Assembly (NCBI RefSeq): GCF_904830925.1
Contig: NZ_LR882967.1
Coordinates: forward strand, 3,298,106 to 3,362,105
DNA: 64,000 nucleotides
Direction of reading: 5' to 3'
Source: Planktothrix pseudagardhii
GTDB taxonomy: Bacteria > Cyanobacteriota > Cyanobacteriia > Cyanobacteriales > Microcoleaceae
Position 1 is the first letter of the stretch, and every line of letters begins with the position of its first letter. Positions 1 through 55,909 of this stretch are shown here, one piece after another. Made by a program: the position numbers and the translations under genes. A model generated the notes under the pieces. The model had not been told where the DNA came from, made no database searches, and was given only the letters and a program-made list of their open reading frames with translations.

Positions 1-1
1 T

Positions 2-1636: not shown

Positions 1637-1637
1637 T

Positions 1638-12261: not shown

Positions 12262-12299
12262 TTCTCTATGTTTTGTTAACTATTCCCTGCTATAACCCT

Positions 12300-13864: not shown

Positions 13865-14785
13865 ATGAGTAAATTAAGAGACTATCTGGACAAGAATCCC
13901 CAGCAAGCAAAAAGGCTATTAGGGATGGAATATGAACAGATGATAGAACTCATTCAAGCTGCGGAGTTATTAGAAGAAGAAAAACGACAGGAAAAAGAAA
14001 AAACTAAAATCAGGTTGATTAAAGCAGGTGGGGGTCGTCGGCAGAAATTATCTGTGGAGGAACAAATCTTACTGACTCTAATTTATCTGCATCAAATGCC
14101 GACATTTCAAATGTTAGGGTTACAGTTTGAAGTCAGTGAATCAACAGCGAATGATATTTTCCATAACTGGATAAAAATCTTGAGAGAATTACTACCAGCG
14201 AGTTTGCTAGAGCAAGTAAAAAAAAACGAGAGTGATTGGGAGTGGGTAGAAAAAATTCTGGTGGAATTTGAGTTAGTAGTAGATAGCTATGAACAGCCCA
14301 GGGAAAGACCAACAGACAATGAAGAGCAGAAAAAATATTACTCAGGAAAGAAAAAGACACATACCTTTAAAAATCAAGTCATTGTCATGCCAAATGGAAA
14401 AGAAATAGTGGATGTAGCTGTGGGTTATACCGGAGCAACAAGTGATCTGAAATTGTGGAGAGAAAGAAGCCAGGAATTGGGGAATAATCAAAAATACAGA
14501 GGGGATAAAGCTTATGTAGGAGAAACAGCAATTAATACACCGTATAAGAAACCGAGGAATCAAGAGATGTCGGCGGAAAAGCGAGAAGAAAATCGGTTAA
14601 AAGCCCAACAAAGGATTGTAGTTGAACATTTAATAAGACTGATAAAAATTTATCGAGTTGCTTCAGAAAGATTTCGGTTAAAGAGGCAAAATTATGAAGC
14701 AGTAATCTTGACAGTATGTGGATTAATAAGATGGCGAATAGGAGCGATTGTATTACCATCTAAGAATTGCCCAGAATTCTTTTGA
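13865..14785 (+). CDS. IS5-family (DDE_Tnp_4 / Harbinger-like) transposase.
   Basis: The central motifs YSGKKKTHTFKNQVIV...VAVGYTGATSD...YRGDKAYVGE...NTPYKKPRNQEMSAEKREENRLKAQQRIVVEHLIRLIKIYR fit DDE_Tnp_4. A short GGGGTAAAA...TTTTACCCC inverted repeat sits just upstream (13826-13858). Confidence 0.75.
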   Translation: MSKLRDYLDKNPQQAKRLLGMEYEQMIELIQAAELLEEEKRQEKEKTKIRLIKAGGGRRQKLSVEEQILLTLIYLHQMPTFQMLGLQFEVSESTANDIFHNWIKILRELLPASLLEQVKKNESDWEWVEKILVEFELVVDSYEQPRERPTDNEEQKKYYSGKKKTHTFKNQVIVMPNGKEIVDVAVGYTGATSDLKLWRERSQELGNNQKYRGDKAYVGETAINTPYKKPRNQEMSAEKREENRLKAQQRIVVEHLIRLIKIYRVASERFRLKRQNYEAVILTVCGLIRWRIGAIVLPSKNCPEFF

Positions 14786-14830: not shown

Positions 14831-15295
14831 GTGACTGAAAAAGCCTATGAATCCGTTACTTTTGGAGAAGCCGGCACAGGAGTGCTAGAGATTCCAAAAG
14901 TAGCGATAGAGGGCATTTGGAGATTTTCGGAGATGTCTAGTGGTGAAAGTGATCAAGTTGCATTAGCGGAAATCGGGGACTGGTTGAAGCGATGGCTAGA
15001 GGCTGTGAATATTTCTCTAACCGATAAAACCCAGTTCGAGGAAGCAACGCGCCATTTACAGTTCGCCATCTTGGTGACAGTGTTAGCGAATCGGTTAAGC
15101 TTTGTGCTTGACCACCTCAGTGCTTTAATGCGATCGCAGGTGATCGACTTTCACGACACTAGCTTATCCCTGGTCAATCGCCCACCACGAGACTATTTAG
15201 CCATTGTCCCTTCGTCACCAGTGGGCAATATCCTCGGCTTTCGATATACCAGCGATCGCCGCCTGCTGGGCAGTTATAATGATGGAAGGAGTTAG
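14831..15295 (+). CDS. Hypothetical protein, possibly a fragment.
   Basis: This is an ORF only. I recognise no motif. It lies in the IS/fragment-rich region. Confidence 0.25.
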   Translation: MTEKAYESVTFGEAGTGVLEIPKVAIEGIWRFSEMSSGESDQVALAEIGDWLKRWLEAVNISLTDKTQFEEATRHLQFAILVTVLANRLSFVLDHLSALMRSQVIDFHDTSLSLVNRPPRDYLAIVPSSPVGNILGFRYTSDRRLLGSYNDGRS

Positions 15296-15647
15296 CATTC
15301 TCGCCCTAGTTTTTTCGCCGTTAGTCATCGGAATATTCAGTAACGACACTGAAGTCATAGCAACCACTACTACCATTCTGCGTATTCATATTTTTTACCA
15401 AGCTGGCGATGCTATTTTTATGATTTACCGAGCCGCTTTGGTGGGATTAAATGATACTTTTTATGTGCGAAATATTAGTTTATTAGGCGGTTGGTTTGTA
15501 ATGATACCTGTTTCATTATTACTAACAAGCGTTATGTCTTTCGGCGTAGTAGGGGCTTGGCTTAAACTAACCCTTAATGTGTTAATCAGTGCGATATTCT
15601 ACGCAGGACGTTTTCACTTTAAATTGAGAGATAGAATAAACAATTGA
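15290..15647 (+). pseudogene. C-terminal fragment of a MATE-family efflux transporter gene.
   Basis: ...ILALVFSPLVIGIFSNDTEVIATTTTILRIHIFYQAGDAIFMIYRAALVGLNDTFYVRNISLLGGWFVMIPVSLLL... matches the last TM helices of NorM/DinF-type MATE proteins. The N-terminal two-thirds are absent. Confidence 0.6.
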
Positions 15648-15880
15648 GAAAAGTTAAAAACTGATTTTGATGTATTTTTACAAATCCTCTTTAATGTTTA
15701 TTTAAGCCGCGGGAAATTGGAATCTATTCAAAATGATAAACTGGTTGTTCAATGTCATACAATGTTCGGGATGATAACGTACCAACTTCTCAATCAGATT
15801 ATCAAATCGGTTCATACCCGGTTTTAAGGCAGAACGAGATAAACGATATAATGGCATCGGGACAGGAACCCCCTTCAAAT

Positions 15881-16999
15881 TCAGGGCTGTTTCATTTTCC
15901 CAAATTGGGGAGTCAAATTGAGTCCCCAATTTTTAGGAATGAGGCGAAAAAGTTGTCCTTCTGTTATTGATACAAAACCCCAACTTCTGAAAAGATTGAT
16001 TACCAGAGTTTTAAGAGTTGAAAAGTTGCTAGCTGCTTGAAAGTTACGAATTCGGCTTTTATCTTCTTGAAAAATTACATCTTTTACCCAATGGTATTGA
16101 TTCTCAATCCCCCAATGTCCTTTAATGATTTGAGCTAAGGTTTGAGCTTCGTTAACGGCACTACTGATATAATATACTTTTTCTTGATAGGGTTTTTTTC
16201 CTCTGTTGCCACTTCTTTCTATCTGAATCACAAGTTTCAGATGTTTCCAGCCTTTGTGAAAGTTGTTATTGACTTGATAAATGGAAACTTTTCGAGTCAC
16301 TTTTCTGCCATGGCTGTGTTCATGAGTCACATCTACACTCACAGGATTTTCACTTTTTATTACCGCTTCAACTTGCTCATATAACTTTTTTTGATTTTTC
16401 TTTAAAGCCATTATATAATCATTCCCGCTCTCAATAACTAGGGCAGCAGTTTTCTGATTACAGTGCAACGCATCAAAGGTTATTACTTTTCTTTTTAACT
16501 GGCAATCCCTTACTATCTTTTGGGCTTGGCTGATTTCTGATTCTTTTTTGTTCTCCATCTTTCTCAGGTTTAATACGCATCCTGTTCTTTGACTAAACAG
16601 TGCAACAATCATCACAAAATTTTGGGATTTATCTCCAAAATCTTTGAGAGTGCTTCTCAGGCTTTTTCCATCTACTGCTAACCAATCTAGTTCTTCTTGA
16701 TGCGGATAATTACAAGTAGCCCATTCATTAAATATCTCAATTAAATTTAACCAATCTACTCCTTGTATTACTCTTCTTATTGTTGAGTATGATGGCAGTT
16801 TTTCTAGCTTGATTTTTAAAACTTGACTCAGTTGGTATTGATTGATTTTCGCAAAATTTTCGAGTTCTCTGTACCCTAAATTTCTCGACATTAGCCCCAA
16901 AATGACTATTAATAATACTAGCCATATTGGATGCCTTGTTCCCTGGGCTTTCCGGTAATCCTTGACTTTTTTCAGTTTTTCTATTAGAGTTGTTAGCAT
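15881..16999 (-). CDS. ISAs1-family transposase (H-repeat-associated, DDE_Tnp_1 with N-terminal DDE_Tnp_1_assoc domain).
   Basis: The N-terminus KDYRKAQGTRHPIWLVLLIVILGLMSRNLGYRELENFAKIN is the ISAs1-associated domain. The DDE core includes ...LAVDGKSLRS...ITFDALHCNQK...HWGIENQYHWVKDVIFQEDKSR. Confidence 0.8.
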   Translation of the reverse strand: MLTTLIEKLKKVKDYRKAQGTRHPIWLVLLIVILGLMSRNLGYRELENFAKINQYQLSQVLKIKLEKLPSYSTIRRVIQGVDWLNLIEIFNEWATCNYPHQEELDWLAVDGKSLRSTLKDFGDKSQNFVMIVALFSQRTGCVLNLRKMENKKESEISQAQKIVRDCQLKRKVITFDALHCNQKTAALVIESGNDYIMALKKNQKKLYEQVEAVIKSENPVSVDVTHEHSHGRKVTRKVSIYQVNNNFHKGWKHLKLVIQIERSGNRGKKPYQEKVYYISSAVNEAQTLAQIIKGHWGIENQYHWVKDVIFQEDKSRIRNFQAASNFSTLKTLVINLFRSWGFVSITEGQLFRLIPKNWGLNLTPQFGKMKQP

Positions 17000-17253
17000 C
17001 TTTATTTTTACAAAAAAATCAGCGACCGCTTTTGATTTTATCAGCTAGCAATCGCTATTTCTTTACTCTTTTCCCCCCGACTTTGAAACAGCCCTGGTTC
17101 AAGTCGGGGGTGATGCCTGTTATGAAAATTATGGAGGGTGTGAGCATTTCCTCTCTAGCAGAGCTAATGCTAGAGCAATGGGCATTGGCTCTGCTCCAGT
17201 CAGCATCCCCATCCACTGAACTCGATGACAGTATGGAGGAAATCGCTCTATGA
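16990..17253 (+). pseudogene. Probable 3' remnant of an upstream biosynthetic gene cut off by the ISAs1 insertion. Its stop overlaps the NRPS start codon (ATGA).
   Basis: The ORF ends ...SISSLAELMLEQWALALLQSASPSTELDDSMEEIAL. Its TGA overlaps the ATG of the NRPS at 17250-17253. Its 5' part runs into the ISAs1 element, so only the last 65 or so codons can be native. Confidence 0.3.
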
Positions 17254-20200
17254 ACCTTAAGCAATTTGTAGCTGAACTCGCCCTAGCTGGTGTGAAGTTG
17301 TGGGTCGAAGACGACCAGTTGCGCGTGCGGGCACCAAAGAAGGTACTGACACCAGAGGTACGTAATTTATTGGCATTGCATAAGGCAGAACTTGTAAAGT
17401 TGCTACAGAACAGCAATGCGATCGCCAATGATACTGACCTACCCCTTCTAAGAGTTTCGCGAACTGGTAACTTGCCTCTGTCTTTTGCCCAAGAAGGACT
17501 GTGGTTCTTGAGCCAGTTGGAGCCAACTAACCCCTTCTACAACGTACCACTAGCTCTGCGACTTAATGGTTCTCTCAACGTTGTCGCTTTAGAGAAAAGC
17601 CTCAACAAGATAATTCAACGCCACGAGGTCTTACGCACCAACTTCACAACGGTTGAGGGGCAACCCGTTCAGGTTATTGCTCTTGGCTTGACCTTGAGTG
17701 TGCAAGTCATAGATTTGAGTGAGCTACCTGAGAGTGAAAGAGAAATTGCTTGGGGGCTAAAAGCCAGGGCACAAATCCAGCAACCCTTTGACCTCAGTAG
17801 CTCTGGGTTGATTCAAGCTTCTGTGCTAAAGCTAACACCGACAGAACATATCTTGTTACTAACAATACATCACATTGTCTGGGATGCTCCTTCAGAGGGC
17901 GTATTGGTCAAGGAGTTAGCAGCTTTCTACACAGCCTACTGCAATGACTTGCTACCAGAGCTACCAGAGCTACCGATTCAGTACGCCGACTTTGCTGTTT
18001 GGCAGCGGCAGTGGTTACAGGAAGACATACTAGAGTCTCAACTTGCTTATTGGAAGCAACAACTGTCTGGTGCGCCAGAAATATTGGAACTGCCAACTGA
18101 CCGAGTGCGAAAAGCAACTCAAACGTTTCGAGGGGCGTGTCACCGACAAGCACTCTCAAAAGAACTAACAGAGGCTTTGATGATTTTAAGTCAACGCAAA
18201 GGAGTTACTCTGTTTATGACGCTGTTGGCGGCGCTCTTCACATTGCTTTACCGTTATACAGAGCAGACCGATATTTGCGTAGGCACGCCTTACGCAGGCC
18301 GGGAGCGCCGTGAGCTTCAGGGATTGATTGGATTGTTTCTCAATACGTTGGTTCTGCGGACTGATATATCAGGTAATCCGAGTTTTGAGGAGCTACTCTC
18401 AAGAGTCCGGGACGTGGCTTTGGGAGCATACGCTCATCATGACCTACCGTTTGAAAAGTTATTAGAACAATTGCAGCCAGCGCGTAACTTAAGCTACACA
18501 CCGTATTTCCAAGTGAGGTTTGTGCTTTACCCAGCGATGCAGATAGACATGGAAGGCTTAACGGTGAGTCCAGTAGCGGTAGAAACAGCTACGGCGAAGT
18601 TGGATTTGTTTGTAGCTTTCGTCAACAGCGACTCTGGACTAATCGGGACGTGGGAATACAATACTGACTTGTTTGATGCCAGTACGATCAATCGCATGGC
18701 TCAACATTTTCAGACCTTACTAGAGGGAATTGTTGCTAATCCTCAACAGAAGGTTTCAGAATTGCCATTGCTCACAGAGCCAGAGCGACACCAGCTATTA
18801 GTAGAGTGGAACAACGCCACAAAAGAGTATCCCTTCAATAAGTGTATCCACCAGTTATTTGAGGAACAGGTGGAGCGATCGCCTGATGCTATTGCGGTGG
18901 TTTTTGAAGGGGAGCAACTGACCTACCAAGATTTGAACCAACGGGCGAACAGAATAGCACATCACTTGAAAACTCTAGGTGTGGAGCCAGAAGTGCTGGT
19001 GGGCATCTACGTTGATCGCTCCTTAGAGATGGTAGTGAGTCTACTTGGCATCCTCAAAACTGGAGGGGCTTATGTGCCTTTAGACCCATCCTATCCCAAA
19101 GAGCGCTTAGCGTTCATGTTGCAAAATTCACAACCAAAGGTGTTGTTGACTCAGGAGTGCTTGATAACAGAACTGCCTGAACATACGGCACAAGTTGTTT
19201 GCTTAGATACAGATAGGCATCTCATTGCTCAACACTCAGAAGAAAATTTAAACCAAACAGCAACAGTTGCTAATTTAGCCTATGTCATTTATACCTCTGG
19301 CTCAACGGGAAAGCCAAAGGGAGTACAGGTGACACACGCTAATTTGTGTCACTATGCCCAAGCAATGAGTCAAGTGCTAAATATCACAGCAGAAGATGTA
19401 TATTTGCACACCGCATCGATTGCTTTCTCATCTTCTGTCAGACAGTTGATCGTGCCTCTGGCTAGTGGGGCAACTGTCAAAATTGCAACTTCTGAACAGA
19501 GAAAAGACCCACAATCACTATTTACGACAATTAAACAACATAGTGTGACAGTTATTGATATTGTCCCCTCTTATTGGCGTAACTGCATTCATACACTTGC
19601 TAGCTTAGAACCTGTTACGAAACAAGCACTGTTAGATAACAAACTGCGTTTAATTGTGTCGGCGAGCGAACCGCTGCTGTCCGATCTTCCTACTCAGTGG
19701 ACGTTTGGTTTTCAGCACAAAGCACGATTAATCAATATGTTTGGTCAAACTGAAACTTGTGGAATTGTTGCCACTTATCCAATTCCGGCACAACAGGATG
19801 AGCCAATCAAAATTGTCCCTATCGGTCGCCCGATCACCAACACACAAATTTATCTGCTCGACTGCCATCTGCAACCAGTCCCTGTTGGTGTACCTGGGGA
19901 AGTGCATATTGGTGGTTTTGGACTGGCGCGAGGCTACCTCAACAGCCCAGAATTGACAAAAGAAAAATTCATCCCCAACCCCTTTAGCCAAGAAGAAGGA
20001 ACACGCCTCTACAAAACCGGGGACAATGCCCGCTACCTTCCAGACGGTAACATTGAGTTCCTTGGTCGGCTGGATCGTCAAGTGAAGATTCGCGGTTTCC
20101 GTATTGAACTCGGAGAAATCGAAGCAGCGCTAGCTCAACACCCAGAGGTACGGGAGACAGTAGTTTTAGCAAGGGATGACCAACCAGATAACAAACGACT

Positions 20201-21503
20201 GGTAGCTTATGTTGTTCCCAACCATGAACCTCCTGCCACCATTGAACTGCGGCACTTCCTCCAACAAAAGCTCCCAGACTACATGGTGCCGGGAGCCTTT
20301 GTGATGCTTTCTTCTTTACCTCTCACCCCCAATGGTAAGGTAGACCGTCGCGCCTTGGAGACACCAGATACGGAATTAAGTAACTCAATGGGCTTTGTCC
20401 CTCCCCGTGACACAGTTGAACAGCAACTACAGCAAATTTGGTCAGAGGTTTTGAAGCTTCCGACTGTTGGAATGAAGGATAACTTCTTTACTTTCGGAGG
20501 TCATTCTCTTTTAGCTGTACTCTTAATGGCTCAAATTTCGCGGCATTTTGGGAAAAATCTGCCCATAGCAACGCTTTTCTCTAGCCCAACTATCGAACAG
20601 CTAGCTAGTTGTCTTCGATCCGAAACTCATTCCTTGCCTTGGTCTCCTTTGGTAGCAATTCAGTCTGGCACCGAGAAGCGACCTTTCTTCTTTGTGCCTG
20701 GAGTTGGGGGAAATGTGATTTACTTATATGAGCTAGCGCGTCATCTTGGATCTGAGCAACCCTTCTACGGTCTGCAAGCACGGGGACTGGATGGCGAATC
20801 AGAGCCTTTTACACAGTTGGAAGAGATAGCCACCTACTATATTGAAGCAATACAGACAGTTCAGCCCTCTGGTCCGTACCTGCTGGGAGGGCATTCGTTT
20901 GGAGGTGTAGTTGCCTTTGAGATGGCAACTCAGTTGCTCAAACAGGGGCATGAGGTCGCTCTACTTGCAATTATTGACGTTGTTGCGCCAATTGTTGCTA
21001 ATAAGCCGAATTATTCTGATGAAGATGAGGTGGCATATCTTTTTGATTTTGCCAGCTATATTGAATATATGTTCTCCCTCAAGTTGGAGGTATCTAAAGA
21101 AACTCTTGCTTCCCTATCTCAGGAGGAGCAATTGAACTATCTCAAAGAACGGTTGATACGGGTCAATTTGCTACCCCCTGATGCGGGAATAGGGTTAGTA
21201 CGGGGGCTAGTGCAAGTATACATTGCGTCCCTGAAAGCTCATCGTGCTTATTTGCCTTCGGGGCTGCAACAAGCTCCCATTACTCTTTTCCGTTCTAGTG
21301 AGGTTGATGTATTTGAGGGTGATACAGAAGAGTTGAAACAAAGGCGAAAAGAACCTGCTTTGGGCTGGAACGAGTTTTCTTCTACTATAGACATTCATGT
21401 TGTTCCAGGGAACCATAGCACCATGATGCAACAGCCGCACGTACAGGTGTTAGCCACACAACTTCTCTCTTGCCTAAAGCAAACACAGGCTCCATTGGCT
21501 TAG
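17250..21503 (+). CDS. Single-module nonribosomal peptide synthetase: N-terminal TubC-type docking domain, then C, A, T (PCP) and TE domains.
   Basis: Docking domain: MNLKQFVAELALAGVKLWVEDDQLRVRAPKKVLTPEVRNLLALHKAELVKLL. C domain: HHIVWDA motif near 17868. A domain: A3 LAYVIYTSGSTGKPKGV near 19290, A5 NMFGQTE, A7 YKTGDNARY, A8 GRLDRQVKIRGFRIELGEIE, A10 PNGKVDRRAL. T domain: FFTFGGHSLLAV, Ser near 20503. TE: GGHSFGG near 20889, with a C-terminal GNHSTMM His. Confidence 0.85.
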   Translation: MNLKQFVAELALAGVKLWVEDDQLRVRAPKKVLTPEVRNLLALHKAELVKLLQNSNAIANDTDLPLLRVSRTGNLPLSFAQEGLWFLSQLEPTNPFYNVPLALRLNGSLNVVALEKSLNKIIQRHEVLRTNFTTVEGQPVQVIALGLTLSVQVIDLSELPESEREIAWGLKARAQIQQPFDLSSSGLIQASVLKLTPTEHILLLTIHHIVWDAPSEGVLVKELAAFYTAYCNDLLPELPELPIQYADFAVWQRQWLQEDILESQLAYWKQQLSGAPEILELPTDRVRKATQTFRGACHRQALSKELTEALMILSQRKGVTLFMTLLAALFTLLYRYTEQTDICVGTPYAGRERRELQGLIGLFLNTLVLRTDISGNPSFEELLSRVRDVALGAYAHHDLPFEKLLEQLQPARNLSYTPYFQVRFVLYPAMQIDMEGLTVSPVAVETATAKLDLFVAFVNSDSGLIGTWEYNTDLFDASTINRMAQHFQTLLEGIVANPQQKVSELPLLTEPERHQLLVEWNNATKEYPFNKCIHQLFEEQVERSPDAIAVVFEGEQLTYQDLNQRANRIAHHLKTLGVEPEVLVGIYVDRSLEMVVSLLGILKTGGAYVPLDPSYPKERLAFMLQNSQPKVLLTQECLITELPEHTAQVVCLDTDRHLIAQHSEENLNQTATVANLAYVIYTSGSTGKPKGVQVTHANLCHYAQAMSQVLNITAEDVYLHTASIAFSSSVRQLIVPLASGATVKIATSEQRKDPQSLFTTIKQHSVTVIDIVPSYWRNCIHTLASLEPVTKQALLDNKLRLIVSASEPLLSDLPTQWTFGFQHKARLINMFGQTETCGIVATYPIPAQQDEPIKIVPIGRPITNTQIYLLDCHLQPVPVGVPGEVHIGGFGLARGYLNSPELTKEKFIPNPFSQEEGTRLYKTGDNARYLPDGNIEFLGRLDRQVKIRGFRIELGEIEAALAQHPEVRETVVLARDDQPDNKRLVAYVVPNHEPPATIELRHFLQQKLPDYMVPGAFVMLSSLPLTPNGKVDRRALETPDTELSNSMGFVPPRDTVEQQLQQIWSEVLKLPTVGMKDNFFTFGGHSLLAVLLMAQISRHFGKNLPIATLFSSPTIEQLASCLRSETHSLPWSPLVAIQSGTEKRPFFFVPGVGGNVIYLYELARHLGSEQPFYGLQARGLDGESEPFTQLEEIATYYIEAIQTVQPSGPYLLGGHSFGGVVAFEMATQLLKQGHEVALLAIIDVVAPIVANKPNYSDEDEVAYLFDFASYIEYMFSLKLEVSKETLASLSQEEQLNYLKERLIRVNLLPPDAGIGLVRGLVQVYIASLKAHRAYLPSGLQQAPITLFRSSEVDVFEGDTEELKQRRKEPALGWNEFSSTIDIHVVPGNHSTMMQQPHVQVLATQLLSCLKQTQAPLA

Positions 21504-21577
21504 TAATTGGTCTGTTAAGTGGAAATTTTTGAGGTAATTAACAAGCTCTTTCATTTGACTAAAAAAGCTCAATCATT

Positions 21578-22549
21578 ATGAAAATAGGAATTTTCGACTC
21601 GAATCACAATCTACCCTTGCTAGTAGAACCTGACACAAAACGCGAATCGTCTAATTTTGATTATCTCCTTTCATGGTACAAAGATAATAGTGAACTTTTA
21701 TCAAACAAAATTTTGAAACACGGAGCGATTCTTTTTCGAGGTTTTGATGTCAATACAATCTTAGCTTTTGAAAAATTCGTTAAATCTATTTCAGGTAATT
21801 TAATAGATTATGTTGATGGAAATTCTCCCCGAACCCAACTAGCTAGTGGTATTTATACTTCAACTGAATATCCAGCTGAATACTCCATTAGTTTGCATAA
21901 TGAGTTATCCTACTCTAGCCAATGGCCAGACCAACTCTATTTTTGCTGTATTACTGCGCCTAAAGAGGGCGGAGAAACACCAATTGCTGATAGTCGCCAA
22001 ATCCTCAAAAGTCTTAACCCAAAGATTGTGGAAAAGTTCACACTTAAACAAGTGAAGTATATCCGCAATTTACCTAGTAGTAATGGCATGGGAGTTTCAT
22101 GGCAAGATGCTTTTAAAACTTCAGATAAGTCCCTAGTAGAAGAGCATAATAGAAAAGCTGGTATGGATTTTGAGTGGAAGAAGGATGGAGGATTGCGATT
22201 AAGCCAGATTCGTCCTGCTATTGCAACTCATCCTCGTACAGATGAACAAGTTTGGTTTAATCAAGCCGATCTATTTCATCCATCTACTCTTCCTAAAAAT
22301 ATCTACGAAGCTATGATGTTTTATTTTGACGGTAACGAAGAGGAACTCCCTCACTATGCTTGCTTTGGCGACAATACTCCAATTGATGTTTCAATGCTAG
22401 ATGAAATTAGAGAAACTATTGGTAAACAAACTGTTGTTTTTCCTTGGCGGGAGGGTGATGTTCTAGTCATAGATAATATGTTAGTTTGTCATGGACGAAG
22501 ACCGTTTTTTGGTTCGAGAAAAATTTTGATTTCTATGTCACAATTCTGA
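21578..22549 (+). CDS. Fe(II)/2-oxoglutarate-dependent oxygenase of the TauD/clavaminate-synthase-like family. Probably an amino-acid beta-hydroxylase (VioC/AsnO/SyrP-like).
   Basis: The HxE facial triad start (SLHNELSY) and the C-terminal DNMLVCHGRRPF (second His plus 2OG-binding Arg) are typical of the CAS-like branch of PF02668. The gene sits between NRPS genes. Confidence 0.7.
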   Translation: MKIGIFDSNHNLPLLVEPDTKRESSNFDYLLSWYKDNSELLSNKILKHGAILFRGFDVNTILAFEKFVKSISGNLIDYVDGNSPRTQLASGIYTSTEYPAEYSISLHNELSYSSQWPDQLYFCCITAPKEGGETPIADSRQILKSLNPKIVEKFTLKQVKYIRNLPSSNGMGVSWQDAFKTSDKSLVEEHNRKAGMDFEWKKDGGLRLSQIRPAIATHPRTDEQVWFNQADLFHPSTLPKNIYEAMMFYFDGNEEELPHYACFGDNTPIDVSMLDEIRETIGKQTVVFPWREGDVLVIDNMLVCHGRRPFFGSRKILISMSQF

Positions 22550-22574
22550 TTATCTTAGCTATAAGTGTAAGTAG

Positions 22575-24356
22575 ATGTATCAATTCCAAGAGTCTCTTCC
22601 AAAACTACCTTTGCCCAAACTCTCAGACACCTGCGCTCGTTATATCGAGATGGTAACACCGCTGTTGAGTGACACAGAATTAGAGCGAACTAAGACCGCC
22701 GTAAGGGAATTTCAACAAGGGAGTGGAGTCGAACTACAGAAGCAATTGGAGATGATTGACCGCTCAACTAATACTAACTATTTACAACAATTTAAAGAGG
22801 AAACCTATTTAGAAATGCGGTCTTCACAACTAAATATGAGAAGCACAGGGGTGGCTTCGCCCGTCTTGACAACCTCGAAATATTCCTTTACCCGCATTGT
22901 CGCCATCATAATTTTTAATACCCTCCAATTCCACCTGAAAATCAAATATCGGGAACTAGAGCCAGATCGCGATGTATTTCAACGAAACAAACCTCCCCTT
23001 TGTATGGCTCAGTATGACAATTTGTTTGGCAGTGCGCGAATTCCTGGAATCAAATGTGACAGCTTTCAAAGGGCGAAAAATTCTGAGCATATTGTGGTCA
23101 TCCGACGGGATACGTTTTACGTCTTAAAGTTGCTCCCAGGGGATACGTTACCGTCGGTGGAAGCTGTAGCACAGCAAATTGATTGGATTCTGGAAAATAC
23201 TCATCCAGGGGAACTTCCTGTGGGAGTGCTGACATCTCTCCCCAGAGAACAGTGGGCAACAGTTCGCTCCTACCTCACGAACCTAGATGCAGAAAACGCT
23301 TGCTCTCTAGAACTATTGGATAGCGCCTTATTTGTTGTCTGTTTAGACGAAATAACGCCTCCCGATTTGGAAAGGCTAGCAAGAACTGCCTTTACTGGAG
23401 ATGGTGGGCGAAACCGATGGTTCGATAAACCTATTCGGCTCGTTTTTAACTCTGAGGGTCAGTTCGCTGTAACAATTGAACACAGTAATGTCGATGGTTA
23501 TCCGGTAGCACGGTTGATAAGCGAGGTCAACCGGGAGCTTGAACCCCTTGAAGAATCCCTTACATCCTCCAGTTCAGTCGAACTCGAACCCCCACAGCGA
23601 CTGTGGTGGAAATTAGACCAGAAACTCCGAGAAGAAGTAGCTCAAGCATTAACAGATGCAGAGTGTCTGAGCGAACAAATTCAGATGGGGATAATAATTT
23701 TCGACGAATTTGGGTCAGACTTTATCCAGCAACATGGTTTAATTGCTGATGCTGTGTTTCTCCTGTCGCTACAGATTGCTTACACTCGCCTGCATGGTAA
23801 GATTACTACTAGCGCTTGGCAAGCTGTACACAACAGAACCTTCCGGTACGGGCGGCACGACTACGCCTTAGTAGTTACACCCGAATCTGTAGAACTCATT
23901 CAAGCCTTTACTGAGGGAGCTTCAGACGAAGTGCGATATCGGACTCTAAAACGTGCTGTTAACGCTCATTTATGGCGAGTGTTTAACACTAAAAACGGGC
24001 AGGGAGTGGTCATGCACCTTTATGCGCTTTATAACTTAGCTCGCTATAAAGGCAGCAGTGTTCTCGATATTTTTCAAGATAAAACCTTTGAAGAAGTTAT
24101 CTTAGACCCAAGCTTCTCCGCTTCTGCCCTAAGTAATAAAATGGGTGTAGAGATAGCCTGCCCCAGTCCATGTCGCGACTATGGAATCGGCTATGTCATC
24201 GATCGCAACAAGATTACCTTTGCTGTAACGAGTAAACATCTACAGCCGGAAGATTTCATCGCTCTTGTCAAGCAGTGTCTTTCAGAAATCGGAAAATTGT
24301 TAATAGAGCAACGACACCCAGATTCCAATATAAGAATACATTCATCACCACAATGA
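22575..24356 (+). CDS. Choline/carnitine O-acyltransferase family protein (593 aa).
   Basis: The N-terminal LPKLPLPKLSDTCARYIEMVTPLL matches the conserved LPxLPVPxLxxTLxxYL start of carnitine acyltransferases. The catalytic-His region TIEHSNVDGYPVARL matches the EHSxxDG motif. Length fits the family. Confidence 0.7.
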   Translation: MYQFQESLPKLPLPKLSDTCARYIEMVTPLLSDTELERTKTAVREFQQGSGVELQKQLEMIDRSTNTNYLQQFKEETYLEMRSSQLNMRSTGVASPVLTTSKYSFTRIVAIIIFNTLQFHLKIKYRELEPDRDVFQRNKPPLCMAQYDNLFGSARIPGIKCDSFQRAKNSEHIVVIRRDTFYVLKLLPGDTLPSVEAVAQQIDWILENTHPGELPVGVLTSLPREQWATVRSYLTNLDAENACSLELLDSALFVVCLDEITPPDLERLARTAFTGDGGRNRWFDKPIRLVFNSEGQFAVTIEHSNVDGYPVARLISEVNRELEPLEESLTSSSSVELEPPQRLWWKLDQKLREEVAQALTDAECLSEQIQMGIIIFDEFGSDFIQQHGLIADAVFLLSLQIAYTRLHGKITTSAWQAVHNRTFRYGRHDYALVVTPESVELIQAFTEGASDEVRYRTLKRAVNAHLWRVFNTKNGQGVVMHLYALYNLARYKGSSVLDIFQDKTFEEVILDPSFSASALSNKMGVEIACPSPCRDYGIGYVIDRNKITFAVTSKHLQPEDFIALVKQCLSEIGKLLIEQRHPDSNIRIHSSPQ

Positions 24357-24366
24357 GCTTTGAAAA

Positions 24367-25512
24367 ATGGACTTTTCATGGACAGAGGAACAAATTCAGT
24401 TTAGAGAGAAGATTGTTAAATTCGCCCAACAAGAGTTGCAATCAAATCTAATTGACCTAGATTGGCGAGAAGAATTTAACCGAGAAAGTTGGGAAAAATG
24501 TGGGAAATTTGGTCTGATCGGTCTGCCAATTCCTGAACATTATGGGGGAACTGGGACAGATATTCTTACAACGATTTGTGCCTTGGAAGCTTTAGGTTAT
24601 GGTTGTAAAGACAATGGTCTAATCTTTGCCATCAACGCTCATATATGGGCTGGCGAAATACCGATTTTAACCTTTGGCACCGAAGCTCAAAAACAAAAGT
24701 ATCTCCCCAAACTCTGTAGCGGTGAATTCATTGGCGCTCATGGGGCAAGTGAACCAGAAGCAGGTTCGGATATTTACAATCTTAAGACTACTGCCAAAAT
24801 ACAGGGAGACAAGTACATCTTAAATGGTGTTAAGAATTGGGTCACAAATGGTCCAGTTGCTGACCTTTACATTGTATTTGCGAATGTCGCTCCCGAAAAA
24901 GGAAAACGGGGAATTACTGGATTTATCGTCGAAAAAGATTTTGCCGGAGTCGCGATCAATCGTAAAATTTCCAAAATGGGTTTAAGAACGACTCAGTTAG
25001 GTGAACTGTTCCTAGAAAATTGTGAAGTGCCGAGTGAAAATCGTCTTGGTCAAGAGGGTTCGGGACTTGCTATCTTTAATCACAGTATGGAATGGGAGCG
25101 AGGATTCATTCTTGCCAGTGCGATCGGGACTATGGAACGTCTGTTAGAAAGCTGCATTCAATATGCTAGGAAGCGCCAGCAATTTGGTCAATCGATTGGA
25201 AAATTTCAGTTAGTTAGCAGCAAAATTGTTGACATGAAGATGCGACTTGAAACAGCTAGAGCGCTGCTGTATAAAGTAGGATGGTTAAAAAATAATAAAA
25301 AAACGGCGATTATGGAAGCGGCAATGGCAAAACTTTATATTAGTGAATCTTGGGTGCAGTCCTGCCTTGATGCAATTCAGATTCATGGTGGTTATGGCTA
25401 TCTAACTGAGTTAGAACTAGAACGAGAATTAAGGGATGCGTTAGGGAGCAAGCTTTATTCAGGAACCTCTGAGATTCAGTACCAAATAATTGCCCAATTT
25501 ATGGGATTATAG
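24367..25512 (+). CDS. Acyl-CoA dehydrogenase-family flavoprotein. Predicted carrier-protein-tethered prolyl oxidase (PltE/RedW/CloN3/AnaB-like).
   Basis: It has the ACAD fold (MDFSWTEEQ..., GASEPEAGSD, C-terminal ...QIHGGYGY...). It is 381 aa, sits immediately upstream of a stand-alone A domain and a stand-alone PCP, and the stops and starts are closely spaced. Confidence 0.75.
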   Translation: MDFSWTEEQIQFREKIVKFAQQELQSNLIDLDWREEFNRESWEKCGKFGLIGLPIPEHYGGTGTDILTTICALEALGYGCKDNGLIFAINAHIWAGEIPILTFGTEAQKQKYLPKLCSGEFIGAHGASEPEAGSDIYNLKTTAKIQGDKYILNGVKNWVTNGPVADLYIVFANVAPEKGKRGITGFIVEKDFAGVAINRKISKMGLRTTQLGELFLENCEVPSENRLGQEGSGLAIFNHSMEWERGFILASAIGTMERLLESCIQYARKRQQFGQSIGKFQLVSSKIVDMKMRLETARALLYKVGWLKNNKKTAIMEAAMAKLYISESWVQSCLDAIQIHGGYGYLTELELERELRDALGSKLYSGTSEIQYQIIAQFMGL

Positions 25513-25624
25513 AGGGTGATTTTTTGTTTACGCGAGAGCATTTGCGAGATTACGAGACAACGCTGCGGCGCGCTACGAAGAATTGGTACGAATTCATCTC
25601 GCTGTATTATCGTTTGAACATTCT

Positions 25625-27244
25625 ATGGAAGACAGCCCAAAACCCATGCCGTATCTACTGCAACAGCTTTTAGAAATTAGTGCCAAGCAATATCCAGACC
25701 GGGAAGCTGTAATCTATAAAAATAGCAGCATCACGTATCGGGAGTTAGACCAAGTTTCTAATCAGTTAGCCCACCTCTTGATAAGTTGCGGGATATCAAG
25801 AGGCGATCGCGTCGGCATTTACGTGAACAAATCCATTGAAGCAGTCATTGCCATTTTCGGTATCCTTAAAGCTGGATCTGTCTACGTTCCCCTAGACCCC
25901 TTAGCTCCTGCGAAGCGGATAGGCTTTATCATTGACAATTGCCAGATGAAGGCTTTGGTGAGTACCCATAAAAAGATAGCCAGCCTTCAACTGCCAAACA
26001 CCTCTGGTGTCCAGTGCCTGGTACTCGCTGACGATGAAGCACAACAGGACACGGGTAATCTGTCAAATGTCAGGATGGTGTCTTGGCAAGAGGTGTTGCA
26101 AGCACCGCCAAACCCATCACCACCCAGCAATTTGATTGAAGACGATCTTGCCTACATTCTCTACACATCCGGCTCCACTGGCACTCCCAAAGGGGTGATG
26201 ATTAGCCATCGAGCTTCTCTAACCTTTGTCAACTGGGCTTATGATTGCTTTCAGGTACAAAGGAGCGATCGCGTTTCCAATCACGCCCCACTTCATTTCG
26301 ATCTTTCCATCTTTGATATCTTCACCACTATCAAAGCAGGTGCGACTGTCATTCTGGTACCACCGGAACTCTCAGTGTTTCCCAGAAACCTCGCTCAGTT
26401 TATTGAAGAACAACAAATTACCATCTGGTATTCTGTCCCTTCAGTGCTGAGACAGCTAATTGTTTACGGCAACCTGCATCAGGCTCAATTTCCCCATATT
26501 CGGACGATTTTGTTTGCGGGGGAAGTGTTCCCAGTTAAATACCTGCGTCAACTTATGGAGTTGCTACCGCAAGCCAACTACTATAATCTCTACGGACCCA
26601 CAGAAACAAATGTCTGTACTTACTATCCGGTAAAGGAAATTCCTCCTGAAGAGGTAAGAACTCTGCCCATTGGCAAAGCTTGTGCCAACACAGAGGTATT
26701 TGCCGTCAATGAACACAAAGAAATTACCAAACCAGGAGAAGTTGGGGAACTTTACGTGCGTAGCCCCTCCTTAATGAAAGGATACTGGGGAAATCATGAC
26801 AAAACCCAACAGGCTCTCACACCTTTCCCCGTACCAGGTTGCGGATGGTTAGAAAAAGTTTACCGAACTGGGGATTTAGTGAAACTCAATTCTGATGGCA
26901 ACTATATTTATTTAGGTCGTCGCGATAACCAGATTAAGAGCCGAGGATACCGAATTGAACTGGATGAAATTGAAACGACGCTATACGCTCATCCTGCAAT
27001 TGTTGAAGCAGCCGTAATTGCTATTCCCGATGAGGAAATCGGCAAGAAAATCAAGGCTATAATTGCCACACAGGATGGAAATAATCTCAAAAAGAGCGAT
27101 GTAGAATATTTTTGTGCACAGCGTCTACCTAAATACATGATACCGGAGCTAATTGAGTTTCGTTCTGGGTTACCTAAAACCCCTACAGGCAAGATTGACA
27201 AAACCTTACTGCGTACCGAAGAACTTCAAGAGAATTCAAAATAG
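25625..27244 (+). CDS. Free-standing adenylation enzyme (amino-acid adenylation domain). Predicted L-proline activating (PltF/RedM/CloN4/AnaC-like).
   Basis: Core motifs: YTSGSTGTPKGV (A3), FDLSIFDIF (A4, Asp present), NLYGPTETNV (A5), YRTGDLVKL (A7), GRRDNQIKSRGYRIELDEIE (A8), PKTPTGKIDK (A10). The hand-aligned specificity residues are about D-L-F-Y-L-A-L-V-C-K. The ATG at 25625 is preferred over the TTG at 25583. Confidence 0.75.
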   Translation: MEDSPKPMPYLLQQLLEISAKQYPDREAVIYKNSSITYRELDQVSNQLAHLLISCGISRGDRVGIYVNKSIEAVIAIFGILKAGSVYVPLDPLAPAKRIGFIIDNCQMKALVSTHKKIASLQLPNTSGVQCLVLADDEAQQDTGNLSNVRMVSWQEVLQAPPNPSPPSNLIEDDLAYILYTSGSTGTPKGVMISHRASLTFVNWAYDCFQVQRSDRVSNHAPLHFDLSIFDIFTTIKAGATVILVPPELSVFPRNLAQFIEEQQITIWYSVPSVLRQLIVYGNLHQAQFPHIRTILFAGEVFPVKYLRQLMELLPQANYYNLYGPTETNVCTYYPVKEIPPEEVRTLPIGKACANTEVFAVNEHKEITKPGEVGELYVRSPSLMKGYWGNHDKTQQALTPFPVPGCGWLEKVYRTGDLVKLNSDGNYIYLGRRDNQIKSRGYRIELDEIETTLYAHPAIVEAAVIAIPDEEIGKKIKAIIATQDGNNLKKSDVEYFCAQRLPKYMIPELIEFRSGLPKTPTGKIDKTLLRTEELQENSK

Positions 27245-27263
27245 TTCAATAAGGAGATTGATA

Positions 27264-27533
27264 ATGACCGCCGTAAACAAGTACACGGAAGCACAGATAG
27301 AACAGATAATTAAAGAGCATATTGTCCAAAATTTCATGTACGATAGACCCGATATGGTTTTATCAAATGATTTGTCCATAATCGAAGAAGGACTGGTTGA
27401 CTCGCTGGGCATTTTTCGACTGGCTAGCTTTCTGGAAGAAAAGTTTGGTATTACCTTAAATCCAGAAGAATTCTTACTGGAGAATTTTGAAACAGTTAAC
27501 GTTATCAAATCTTTCGTTATCAGCAGACTGTAA
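27264..27533 (+). CDS. Free-standing peptidyl/acyl carrier protein (89 aa).
   Basis: The phosphopantetheine attachment motif is EEGLVDSLGIFRL. A strong RBS AAGGAG lies 8 nt upstream of the ATG. The gene directly follows the A enzyme. Confidence 0.75.
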   Translation: MTAVNKYTEAQIEQIIKEHIVQNFMYDRPDMVLSNDLSIIEEGLVDSLGIFRLASFLEEKFGITLNPEEFLLENFETVNVIKSFVISRL

Positions 27534-27647
27534 CAGTTGTTGCTGCCAATTTCTAACTACCTGCTAGGTTAGATTTTTACAGGCTACGCCATCAAAATCT
27601 ACTTTGACCAAATTAGCTGAAGTTTTAAACAGGCAAACGTTGACGGC

Positions 27648-29015
27648 TCAACCTATGCGTGAATCAGGCAGTTGCTCGGCGACAACCAGAGGTTCATCTT
27701 TCAATGTTCCGGACACCTGCACCGCAAGCACTACCACTCTTATTGCTGCGAACATTGATAGAGCCAACCATAAGAGATGATTGCTCTGATAATGCCATGC
27801 CATGACTGCTAAGGGCGCAAATCCAAACATTGCTCCGCTTAAAGTAGCGTTACGTATAAAATGCCCTTGGGCTAAACCTGCAAAGTATCCATCCAGTATC
27901 ATAGCAATTGAACTAAATCCCAGTCTGGAGAGTAGCCAAGAAACATAGATTTTAACAAGTTCCTTCACTTCACTATGATTGGTTAATAACCCAAAGACTG
28001 TATTCGGGAACAGGATAGACACTCCAGAACAAATTAATGCCGCCAGTAGGCTGGTTGAGACTGCCACCTGCAATAGGGGCAACAATCGATCTATTGTTTG
28101 TTTGCCTTTAAAATTTCCACCCAAAGTCTCGGTAGCAAATCCTATTCCTTCAAAAAAGTAACTGGAAAGCATTATTACTTGTAAGAGTAAGGCATTTTCA
28201 GCCAGGATAGTTGTCCCCATTGCAGAACTTAGAGCCGTGAAAAAGGTGGCGACGAACATATTAGCCGAAGACCTGATAAAGAGATTGCCGTTCAGGGTAA
28301 AAGTCGCTTTAAATGCGCTGGCATCCCAAAACTTTCTGGCTGCACTTCGAGCTTCCTTCCACTCGATATTGAGACTCGCCAAAATTATGCCTACTACTAA
28401 CACCAGATACTGGCTAATTGCCTGAGACAGTCCCGCCCCCGTGCTTGCCCAGTCCCAACGGACAATAAACAGGTAGTCGAACACAACATTAGCTGCATTG
28501 CCTACTAGGGTCATCAGCAACACAAAGCCACTCATTTCTCGTCCGAGAAACCACCCAATCAGAACAAAATTGACGACAACCGCAGGCGCTCCCCAAATTC
28601 GGGCATTGAAATAGTCAATACCTGAAGCCTTAACCTCTGGAGTCACGCTCATTAGACCAAACCACAACTGTTGCAGAGGATATTGCAACAACAGAAGCAG
28701 TCCGCCTATACCCAGTCCGATTAAAGCATTACGCAGTCCCACCAGCAGCATATCTTCGGTGTCATCCCGTCCCACCGCTTGCGCTGTCACTCCAGTGGTT
28801 CCCATGCGTAAAAAGTTCACAATGAAATAGGTGAAGTTAAACAGAGTGGTAGAGAGAGTAACCCCTGCTAAGTGATGGATTTCGGTTAGATGGCCCAGGA
28901 ACGCTAAGCTGATTGTCCCAGCCAGAGGCTCCATAATATTGGACAGGACATTGATGAAAGCTAGTCTAAAGAAGCGAGAAAGGAAGTCGTACCTATTTGG
29001 GAGTGTTATGTTCAT
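27648..29015 (-). CDS. MATE-family efflux transporter, a putative exporter of the cluster product.
   Basis: It has 12 predicted TM helices. The N-terminus ...INVLSNIMEPLAGTISLAFLGHL is typical of NorM/DinF MATE proteins. It is convergent with the biosynthetic genes. Confidence 0.7.
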   Translation of the reverse strand: MNITLPNRYDFLSRFFRLAFINVLSNIMEPLAGTISLAFLGHLTEIHHLAGVTLSTTLFNFTYFIVNFLRMGTTGVTAQAVGRDDTEDMLLVGLRNALIGLGIGGLLLLLQYPLQQLWFGLMSVTPEVKASGIDYFNARIWGAPAVVVNFVLIGWFLGREMSGFVLLMTLVGNAANVVFDYLFIVRWDWASTGAGLSQAISQYLVLVVGIILASLNIEWKEARSAARKFWDASAFKATFTLNGNLFIRSSANMFVATFFTALSSAMGTTILAENALLLQVIMLSSYFFEGIGFATETLGGNFKGKQTIDRLLPLLQVAVSTSLLAALICSGVSILFPNTVFGLLTNHSEVKELVKIYVSWLLSRLGFSSIAMILDGYFAGLAQGHFIRNATLSGAMFGFAPLAVMAWHYQSNHLLWLALSMFAAIRVVVLAVQVSGTLKDEPLVVAEQLPDSRIG

Positions 29016-29039
29016 GGATTTAGGTTCTCCTGTACCTAT

Positions 29040-29600
29040 GGTGATAAGTAAATCTTATAAAGAAAGACAAGCTAGTAGCTTTTCACGCATCATCTCAAAA
29101 TTTTTGAAGCCATAGCTTTGACGAAGAATTAATTTGATCCGGTTGTTTAATCCCTCCATGACTCCACTGGTTGTTCGATTAATAAAATAATGGCAAATAT
29201 CGGGAAGATGGTGTTTAAGAGTTTGGGCGGCTGACGGGGTGACAAAGAAGCTAGAAGGTAGACTGAATCAACATCATAGCTCTCTGACCTCTTTGAAAAA
29301 AAGGGATCTTATTGCATTTAGTTCTCATTAATTGTTGAGCCAAGTCTGCCCAAATTTCCATTCCAGCTATCCATAAAAGCCCATATTGACAAGACCAAAA
29401 GTTGCTGTGCCGTTGAACACTCCGCCCTAATTCTTGAAGGCGGTTGATATATTTTTGTTGCCCAAGTTGTTTGATTTTTAATCCTTGTAAGGCTTTTATG
29501 GTATAAGCGATGGCGCTAGCCGCGCCTGCTGGCGCATCGCTATCAATAAAACCAGACGGGTTAAGCGTCGCCCCTACGATGCACGGTAATTATTGTCACA
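29040..29600 (-). mobile_element. Degraded ISL3-family transposase remnant with no intact ORF.
   Basis: The minus-strand translation near 29050-29240 gives ...HLPDICHYFINRTTSGVMEGLNNRIKLILRQSYGFKNFEMMREKLLACL. This matches the conserved ISL3 transposase C-terminus (..EGxNNKIKxxKRxxYGFRNFxxFRxRIL..). Upstream coding is interrupted by stops. Confidence 0.5.
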
Positions 29601-53927: not shown

Positions 53928-54146
53928 ATTAATTTTAAAGGTTAGATTTTAGGCATTTTCGGGGTAGTCGATTTTAAGCTGGTAGGTCATAGGGGAATAA
54001 TGGGGTTTGTAATTAGTGGTTTAAGCAGCAATGTTTCCGGTGTTGATGTCGAGGTTTTCAACATCTATTTCACCGGAGATGAGTTTGGGGAGGAGGAGAT
54101 CGCGGGTTTGGCGAAGATTTGCATTTTTAAGCTTCAGATGTTTAAC

Positions 54147-55163: not shown

Positions 55164-55191
55164 TAAATTTATCCTTTTCCCTCATTAACTT

Positions 55192-55841: not shown

Positions 55842-55909
55842 AAATAGTTCCTCTTAATTAACGGCTGAAAGTTTAATCTCATTTTCCTTAACTTAATTAT
55901 ACTCATCCC

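Follow-up and report, generated by a model that had tools for sequence, protein, structure and literature searches.

A carrier-linked choline/carnitine-acyltransferase-family enzyme as a candidate tailoring acyltransferase in a Planktothrix nonribosomal peptide synthetase cluster

Introduction

Ester bonds in bacterial nonribosomal peptides and polyketides are normally credited to condensation (C) domains, thioesterases (TEs) and BAHD- or GNAT-type enzymes. Carrier-dependent ester formation by the carnitine-acyltransferase fold has been documented only for the carnitine-acyltransferase (cAT) domains of fungal polyketide synthases (PKSs; Tv6-931, LtbA), which offload acyl chains bound to an acyl carrier protein (ACP) onto alcohols and accept free polyols or a glycoside (PMC10901484). 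Here, we describe an enzyme of the choline/carnitine-acyltransferase family (CAT) encoded in a stretch of 64,000 nucleotides of the cyanobacterium Planktothrix pseudagardhii (NCBI RefSeq assembly GCF_904830925.1, contig NZ_LR882967.1; this whole stretch is hereafter called the window), where its gene lies between that of a TauD-family Fe(II)/2-oxoglutarate (2OG) oxygenase and homologues of anaB, anaC and anaD, in an operon headed by a nonribosomal peptide synthetase (NRPS). The window CAT resembles the fungal domains in family, in keeping the catalytic His and Ser, and in its recruitment to secondary metabolism; those domains take a carrier phosphopantetheine thioester as donor and a non-carnitine alcohol as acceptor (PMC10901484), and one cyanobacterial relative of the window CAT has the same ketosynthase (KS)-acyltransferase (AT)-ketoreductase (KR)-ACP-cAT layout. 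It differs from them in being bacterial and stand-alone, in belonging to an NRPS operon that already has a TE, and in apparently being a tailoring enzyme, with a dedicated adenylation (A) enzyme, peptidyl carrier protein (PCP) and dehydrogenase as supply and a hydroxylase next door. Our search for literature on bacterial CAT enzymes in NRPS or PKS clusters found fungal work only, and the one cyanochelin paper that we examined makes no mention of a CAT-type enzyme.

Similar logic is familiar from clorobiocin and coumermycin, where CloN2 and CloN7 move a carrier-bound pyrrole-2-carboxyl group onto the hydroxyl of a sugar; there too a proline-derived acyl-S-carrier esterifies a hydroxyl late, with transfer enzymes of unrelated families. 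In anatoxin synthesis, AnaB, AnaC and AnaD make (S)-pyrroline-5-carboxyl-AnaD (PMC3252866), and the hydroxylation of carrier-bound Asp by TauD enzymes of the stand-alone kind is well documented (PMC7100376). The window brings homologues of these parts together around the CAT, and we tentatively propose, at somewhat less than even confidence, that the CAT belongs to a tailoring cassette. It would detach a proline-derived acyl group from a carrier protein and attach it to the NRPS product through a hydroxyl, in the simplest case that installed by the TauD enzyme.

Results

The acyltransferase is a true family member with replaced carnitine- and CoA-binding residues

The window CAT aligned along its full length with the Carn_acyltransf profile (PF00755; E 1e-134, positions 1-568 of the 574 in the profile) and matched the solved chains of CPT2, CrAT, CrOT and ChAT at E 1e-49 to 1e-56. 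An exact-sequence look-up gave no match; among its homologues in the protein database, P0001, an entry named Planktothrix pseudagardhii, is 100% identical. An AlphaFold2 model (predicted local distance difference test, pLDDT, 83.9; predicted template modelling score, pTM, 0.87) was compared with solved structures using Foldseek, and CrAT, CrOT, ChAT and CPT2 were recovered with template modelling (TM) scores of 0.83-0.89 and 24-27% structure-based identity; the next structural tier, WS/DGAT and the C and epimerization domains of NRPSs, reached TM scores of only 0.3-0.4. The model shows the two-domain architecture of the family, in which the active site lies between the domains. The enzyme is a true homologue of the family and not a fold-level look-alike. 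This agrees with neighbour-joining (NJ) phylogeny, which placed it in a bacterial, mostly cyanobacterial clade (bootstrap 100) and not in an unrelated family, so the transferase assignment of the preliminary description of this DNA stands. The clade comprises ~57 proteins at >=40% identity, nearly all cyanobacterial, plus Desulfonema; below it, identity falls to ~32% (eukaryotes) and 23-30% (other bacteria). Within the clade, the immediate group of the window CAT (window and loci L001, L002, L081 and L082) had a bootstrap of 100 and a Rivularia/Calothrix/Mastigocoleus subclade one of 96.

Catalytic residues shared with the animal and fungal enzymes are present, including the E-H-x-x-x-D-G motif (E302-H303-S-N-V-D307-G308) and the S-x-S motif, as is LPKLPLPKL at aa 8-16. 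Residues were mapped with the help of a fish CrAT, in which the motifs stand at a constant distance from their mammalian numbers: the catalytic His is kept (H303 = H343) and S515-A-S517 aligns with S552-T-S554 (S517 = S554). In contrast to the animal and fungal enzymes, whose genomic context also differs from the secondary-metabolism setting found here, the residues that would hold carnitine and CoA are all replaced. Tyr452, Ser454, Thr465 and Arg518 of CrAT, which from the structural literature on that enzyme we take to be the binders of the carnitine carboxylate, are W415, A417, H428 and M480 in the window CAT; its four closest relatives carry the same replacements in this tetrad, and CrAT D430 is kept as D392. 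K419 and K423, which contact the 3'-phosphate of CoA (PMC11852590), are replaced by S381 and Q385. Loss of the tetrad and of both lysines argues against carnitine and CoA as substrates of this enzyme. The pattern is what a protein-borne phosphopantetheine arm as donor would lead one to expect, and suggests as much; a carrier-protein thioester is more likely as donor than a CoA thioester. The Rivularia-type subclade keeps Y452, S454, T465 and R518 together with basic residues at 419 and 423.

A hydroxylase, the acyltransferase and an anatoxin-type starter cassette share one operon

Six genes run on the + strand in the order NRPS, TauD, CAT, AnaB-like, AnaC-like and AnaD-like, with spacers of 74, 25, 10, 70 and 19 bp from the NRPS to the PCP gene, and a MATE gene lies on the opposite strand. 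All seven are full-length with intact catalytic motifs. The open reading frames (ORFs) of the TauD enzyme (323 aa) and the CAT (593 aa), both on the + strand and separated by 25 bp, lie exactly where the preliminary description had put two adjacent genes of these families; their family profiles match, and the motifs it quoted (HxE...DN..HGR for the oxygenase; LPKLPLPKL and EHSxVDG for the transferase) are all present. The features of the cluster are as follows, with the basis of each assignment in brackets (T, thiolation domain; IS, insertion sequence).

15881-16999, - strand: IS transposase (DDE_Tnp_1), the upstream break of the cluster (Pfam; synteny with L001 ends at 17114)
17113-17247, + strand: PKS remnant, the last 45 codons (C-terminal docking end), within an 87-aa ORF at 16990-17253 (tblastn)
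17250-21503, + strand: NRPS, TubC_N docking-C-A-T-TE (Pfam, motifs)
19073-19808, + strand: swapped pocket subdomain of the A domain, NRPS aa 608-853 (DNA alignment breaks, code SSRDVAMGIK)
21578-22549, + strand: TauD-family Fe(II)/2OG oxygenase, putative SyrP-type NRPS-partnered β-hydroxylase (PF02668, orthologue context)
22575-24356, + strand: choline/carnitine-acyltransferase-family enzyme, CAT (PF00755, predicted structure)
24367-25512, + strand: AnaB-like prolyl-carrier-protein dehydrogenase, acyl-CoA dehydrogenase fold (Pfam, NCBIfam, 4irn)
25583-27244, + strand: stand-alone proline-activating adenylation enzyme, AnaC-like (code DLFYLALVCK)
27264-27533, + strand: stand-alone carrier protein, AnaD-like, 89 aa (phosphopantetheine Ser in VDSLG)
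27648-29015, - strand: MATE efflux transporter (Pfam)

The last three genes of the operon correspond to the enzymes that prepare the anatoxin-a starter unit. AnaB (4irn) is the best solved relative of the AnaB-like protein (E 1e-176, 66% identity, no gaps), which scored 590 bits against AnaB and 300 bits against the pyrrole-forming PigA. The AnaC-like enzyme matched PltF-type L-proline-[carrier protein] ligases (E 4e-105), and its specificity code, DLFYLALVCK, reads as proline; all A-domain codes were obtained by alignment to a GrsA fragment, and recovery of the canonical Pro and Asp codes in this way validates the procedure. The true start of the carrier-protein gene is the ATG at 27264. As in the anatoxin cluster, the three proteins occur in the gene order anaB-anaC-anaD, with a proline code and a MATE gene nearby. 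The window differs in that the AnaE-G polyketide synthases do not follow, which leaves only the CAT and the C domain of the NRPS as candidate consumers of the acyl-carrier product. This product is probably 1-pyrroline-5-carboxyl, possibly oxidised further to pyrrole-2-carboxyl. Because the AnaB-like protein is far closer to AnaB than to PigA, pyrrole-2-carboxyl, the acyl group suggested previously, is not the safest guess: AnaB stops at pyrroline-5-carboxyl-ACP.

The oxygenase resembles assembly-line β-hydroxylases

The TauD enzyme, a member of a large family (>7,500 matches), matched PF02668 at E 5e-40 and carries the motifs H107-N-E109, D299-N300 and H305-G-R307, of which H107-x-E109 and H305 align with the 2-His-1-carboxylate triad of At3g21360. 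Solved structures matching at E<0.01 were At3g21360-like proteins only, with no TauD, VioC, AsnO or BBOX chain among them. Against the NCBIfam equivalogs of the carnitine pathway it reached 37.7 bits for TMLD (cut-off 268) and 16.9 bits for BBOX (cut-off 415). Cyanobacterial orthologues with 84-85% identity, in contrast, directly follow a terminal C-A-T-TE module with the Asp code DLTKVGHVGK in Nostoc punctiforme UO1 (L085), Lyngbya CCAP 1446/10 (L086), L091 and L093; of the four loci, only L093 has a CAT gene. Because its orthologues follow Asp-code NRPS modules and its BBOX and TMLH scores are far below the cut-offs, we take the window enzyme to be a putative SyrP-type assembly-line β-hydroxylase and not a carnitine-pathway enzyme. 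An affinity to γ-butyrobetaine and trimethyllysine hydroxylases, raised in the preliminary description, thus finds no support, and its alternative of an NRPS-type hydroxylase, as opposed to a taurine dioxygenase, is favoured by the orthologues.

Since the closest relatives follow terminal Asp-loading modules, the ancestral task of this lineage would have been to form β-hydroxy-Asp on a carrier domain. The likeness to SyrP-type enzymes (syringomycin, and the lipid siderophores cupriachelin and potashchelin) extends to the TauD family, the HxE...H motif, a gene beside an NRPS module, and the pairing of orthologues with Asp-specific modules. The window and L001 depart from this scheme in that the Asp code has been lost from the partner A domain (in the window, SSRDVAMGIK without Asp235) and in 15 private substitutions of their TauD enzymes relative to the Asp-linked orthologues.

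Relatives of the acyltransferase recur beside Fe/2OG hydroxylases

Genomic neighbourhoods of CAT relatives were surveyed in 80 genome loci and about a dozen metagenome loci (numbered with the prefix L). The clade is recurrently paired with Fe/2OG hydroxylases of at least three unrelated families. TauD enzymes of the window type accompany CAT in L001 and L093, occur as fragments in L081 and lie convergent to CAT on contig P0012; distant TauD enzymes (26-28% identity) are found with it in L021 and L096. L082 has a weak WelO5-like match with an HxD motif beside CAT (E 4e-4, below the Pfam gathering score), and L002 a JmjC/cupin protein nearby. In L081 (positions 1-5807), a relative of the window locus, TauD and CAT are separated by an insert that holds a MATE gene and a 409-aa gene lacking annotation; the TauD 3' end is duplicated on both sides of it, the footprint of a recent rearrangement.

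The most regular pairing occurs in the Rivularia-type subclade, where all 19 loci with an upstream flank carry a divergently transcribed gene (~284 aa) related to the BesD/HalD lysine halogenase/hydroxylase family. Its HxD...H motif is invariant, which rules out a halogenase and identifies a hydroxylase. The pair (L005, L006, L008-L013, L015-L020, L024, L026-L028 and L037; for example, - strand 8850-9710 and + strand 9995-11743 of L024) has been conserved in Rivularia, Calothrix, Mastigocoleus, Richelia and related metagenome-assembled genomes (MAGs); the partner has the invariant motifs QHPWH(Y/F)D...SLHRVT. The pair sits among housekeeping genes (rpoB/C, S20, TatD), with a methyltransferase added in five loci, and might provide cyanobacteria with an O-acylated hydroxy-amino acid or with a betaine similar to carnitine.

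Relatives of the acyltransferase are linked or fused to carrier proteins

The PCP of the window is orthologous to the PCPs directly upstream of CAT in Nostoc CHAB 5844 (L003) and L084 (71-75% DNA identity). The order is A-PCP-CAT in both of these loci and CAT-A-PCP in L004. Just upstream of the PCP-CAT pair of L084, positions 9445-9579 hold a 45-codon relic of a proline-type A gene; nearby are genes for a different, 506-aa A enzyme and for ADC-synthase-like, chorismate-mutase-like and class IV aminotransferase proteins (p-amino-aromatic acid), which suggests that the acid supplied to the L084 PCP-CAT pair was exchanged during evolution.

Elsewhere the transferase is part of a megasynthase. A cyanobacterial MAG encodes a KS-AT-KR-ACP-cAT fusion with NRPS genes on its flanks (L025, 4994-11719), and two metagenome contigs of the Joint Genome Institute (L094, Ga0136638_10000393; L095, Ga0209591_10004062) have cAT-A-KR-ACP in one ORF behind a PKS. 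In L094 this ORF (3459-9383, 1974 aa) consists of an N-terminal CAT, the C-terminal remnant of an A domain, a FAAL-like A domain, KR and ACP; it directly follows a PKS ending in ACP-TE, and CAT stands at the place usually taken by a condensation domain. In three further loci (L021, 741-6100; L082, 8536-19832; L096, 862-9267), CAT lies beside PKS loading modules of the AprA type, composed of two methyltransferase (MT) domains, a pseudoGNAT and a carrier (MT1-pseudoGNAT-MT2-ACP). One of the three is from a Pseudomonadota MAG, and the loci are otherwise different. Unlike its relatives in L025 and L094, the window CAT is unfused. Its MATE neighbour has 58% homologues adjoining the CAT genes of L081 and L082.

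The cluster is a mosaic with an exchanged adenylation pocket

Window positions 17114-24282 align with Microcoleus sp. D2_18a_B4 (L001) at 93% DNA identity over 7.2 kb. In L001 a PKS (AT-dehydratase-C-methyltransferase-KR-ACP) precedes the NRPS and runs off the 5' end of the fetched locus; when it was searched against the whole window with tblastn, only its aa 1514-1558 matched (87% identity). Since synteny breaks off right after the IS transposase, leaving no more of the PKS than its last 45 codons, the window has a decapitated assembly line, its PKS cut off by the IS. At the downstream end, the two loci cease to be syntenic 75 nt short of the CAT stop codon: a methyltransferase comes next in L001, and the AnaB/C/D homologues in the window. 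The metagenome contig L093 has the order NRPS-TauD-CAT-AnaB-like with the same 25-bp TauD-CAT and 10-bp CAT-dehydrogenase spacers, and is 89.5% identical in DNA to window positions 19809-24580 (CAT protein 91.6%, partial AnaB-like protein 91.4%), so the arrangement in the window is not a one-off. The order NRPS-TauD-CAT is thus shared with two other assemblies (L001 and L093), and the link of CAT to AnaB/C/D homologues with one of them (L093). L091 and L093 have TauD proteins that are 99% identical, and CAT and the AnaB-like gene are present only in L093: CAT is an accessory cassette in this family of NRPS-TauD clusters.

The NRPS itself has intact core motifs (HHIVWDA at aa 207, GGHSL at aa 1083, GHSFGG at aa 1214) and is 91% identical to its L001 counterpart and 69% to that of Nostoc punctiforme UO1. 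Aligned with the latter (L085) in 50-residue segments, it shows 54-96% identity outside about aa 600-850, as opposed to 46-54% at aa 601-700 and 16-28% at aa 701-850. Judging from where the DNA alignments of L091 and L093 break off, the exchange runs from nt 19073 to 19808 (aa 608-853) and corresponds to the subdomain that gives the A domain its specificity. Its code, SSRDVAMGIK, has Ser in place of Asp235, also in the alignment with LgrA; a substrate without an α-ammonium group is therefore probably loaded. Window and L001 have this exchange in common and L093 does not; the latter combines the Asp code with CAT and the AnaB-like gene, which refutes a link between the exchange and the arrival of CAT. 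Searches with the exchanged subdomain returned only short gene fragments; they share the signature FSSSVRQ...DIVPSYW...FGQTE, which marks a small family of A domains that includes the one in the window, and come from contexts that are uninformative for the substrate (a frameshifted lipopeptide line in L088 and a polysaccharide locus in L089).

Surroundings of the cluster

Apart from the 45-codon remnant, no PKS genes were found within the 64-kb window, and the remainder consists of housekeeping genes. A scan of positions 15500-29500 for promoters and terminators gave fewer matches than shuffled controls and is hence uninformative. The region upstream of the cluster is reshuffled. It contains three transposase genes of different DDE families (463-1575, - strand; 13865-14785, + strand; 15881-16999, - strand) and the C-terminal fragment of an unrelated MATE gene (15204-15647, + strand), in which no similarity to the cluster MATE or to those of L081 and L082 was found. 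Overlapping sulfotransferase-like and GNAT genes lie just past the IS elements (11440-13040); the CAT-A-PCP cassette of L004 also adjoins a sulfotransferase. A 3233-aa ORF at 1662-11363 with FG-GAP, cadherin-like, Ig-like and RTX repeats spans a local GC peak (0.54 at 8-10 kb versus ~0.42 elsewhere). At the far end, 50778-57469 and 57563-62874 encode a type I restriction-modification system (HsdR, HsdM) and two tandem FtsH paralogues, which are ordinary and unrelated to the finding.

Discussion

Gene and domain identities, the residue replacements, the neighbourhoods of the CAT clade and the mosaic history of the cluster are observations, and they can be joined into a tentative pathway. In this pathway, the TauD enzyme would be the resident β-hydroxylase of the NRPS; the AnaC-like enzyme would load proline onto the AnaD-like carrier, and the AnaB-like dehydrogenase would then oxidise the prolyl group. 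The CAT would take the proline-derived acyl group from the phosphopantetheine arm of the carrier protein and esterify a hydroxyl of the NRPS product, the simplest acceptor being the β-hydroxyl installed by TauD. The donor, the acceptor and the order of the steps are inferences, as would be any activity of the pathway in this strain. The hydroxylate-then-O-acylate module that had been suggested before therefore survives in part: hydroxylase neighbours recur across the clade, but the analogy to carnitine fails on the scores and orthologues of TauD and on the lost tetrad and lysines of the CAT.

Several observations weigh against this proposal. The loss of K419 and K423 is suggestive of a carrier-protein donor and falls short of proof, and our literature search found no experimental work on any bacterial member of the CAT clade. 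Release does not require CAT, as the NRPS brings a TE of its own. In several genomes TauD orthologues occur without CAT, and in L001, which is the closest full relative, a methyltransferase comes after CAT and the AnaB/C/D cassette is missing, so that the donor there must differ. Likewise, the CAT relatives of L003, L004, L084, L025 and L094 have no hydroxylase nearby, and the acceptor therefore need not be the product of TauD. The secondary-metabolism lineages of CAT do not resolve as one group (NJ bootstrap 14), and a single recruitment event is not claimed. In the window itself, the upstream PKS has been cut to 45 codons by the IS and the A pocket has been exchanged.

Other explanations can be set against the same evidence. 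The operon could combine two unrelated sub-clusters, with CAT, AnaB/C/D and MATE esterifying a small alcohol present in the cell (polyol, sugar or amino alcohol), TauD serving the NRPS only, and their adjacency accidental. A-PCP-CAT cassettes without an NRPS or hydroxylase (L003, L084 and, in another order, L004), the presence or absence of CAT between near-identical NRPS-TauD loci (L093 versus L091), the MATE genes that accompany CAT in L081 and L082, and the free polyol or glycoside acceptors of the fungal domains are all compatible with such a mini-pathway. We nevertheless consider it unlikely, though well worth keeping in mind, as the cassette occupies an identical position inside the operon, with 25-bp and 10-bp spacers, in two genomes that have diverged to 89.5% DNA identity, TauD-CAT is retained in L001 where AnaB/C/D are missing, and many other lineages of the clade likewise pair CAT with a hydroxylase. 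It is distinctly improbable that CAT acts as a release or condensation-like catalyst, which would pass a chain from an NRPS or PKS carrier domain to an alcohol, possibly itself carrier-bound, with the proline unit on the acceptor side or irrelevant. CAT does occupy the position of a release domain in the L025 fusion, directly follows an NRPS without TE in L002, heads the A-KR-ACP protein of L094 at the usual C-domain site and shares its fold with NRPS C domains; however, an intact TE (GHSFGG motif) closes each of the modules of the window, L001 and L093, and a pyrroline- or pyrrole-carboxyl-S-PCP has no hydroxyl to serve as acceptor.

A different kind of doubt is whether the cluster does anything in this strain. 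A decaying relic that makes nothing, its genes intact only since the damage is recent, would fit the PKS reduced to 45 codons beside an IS, the three transposase genes and MATE fragment within 17 kb upstream, and the further rearrangement of the same region in L081 with its duplicated TauD 3' ends. Against this stand the full length and intact catalytic motifs of all six + strand genes and the MATE gene, and the fact that the A-subdomain exchange is shared with L001, whose PKS shows no truncation in the fetched locus; we regard a relic as quite unlikely, and it would bear on activity in the strain only and not on the function of the enzymes. Genuine carnitine or choline metabolism, in which a BBOX/TMLH-like TauD would make a hydroxy-betaine for CAT to acylate from acyl-CoA, is largely refuted and has only the slightest probability left. 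Both families do include carnitine enzymes, and the sister Rivularia-type subclade keeps the tetrad and the basic residues at 419 and 423. The window CAT has none of these residues, TauD scores far below the BBOX and TMLH cut-offs and has NRPS partners as orthologues, and the neighbours are NRPS, carrier-protein and MATE genes and not those of betaine transport or catabolism. Overall, a tailoring cassette acting on the NRPS product is the reading that we favour, with the reservations given above.

These comparisons define a bacterial CAT clade of about 60 members. Its signature is a retained catalytic His with lost ligands for carnitine and the CoA 3'-phosphate; partners of three kinds recur beside it, namely Fe/2OG hydroxylases, A-PCP pairs and PKS carrier domains, and there are natural fusions. 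Such features make the hypothesis directly testable and point to a portable acylation cassette for pathway engineering. In its widest form, which we consider possible and rather doubtful as a whole, CAT-fold proteins may be an unrecognised class of ester-forming enzymes in cyanobacterial NRPS and PKS pathways, stand-alone or fused, that would use carrier thioesters as donors and hydroxyls supplied by an Fe/2OG hydroxylase or a KR; here, the pyrroline-5-carboxyl unit of the carrier would be joined to a TauD-hydroxylated residue in a depsi-linkage that needs no condensation domain. Homologues of the anatoxin starter enzymes are, in addition, used outside anatoxin synthesis, which is relevant to anaB/anaC-type toxin markers in environmental surveys.

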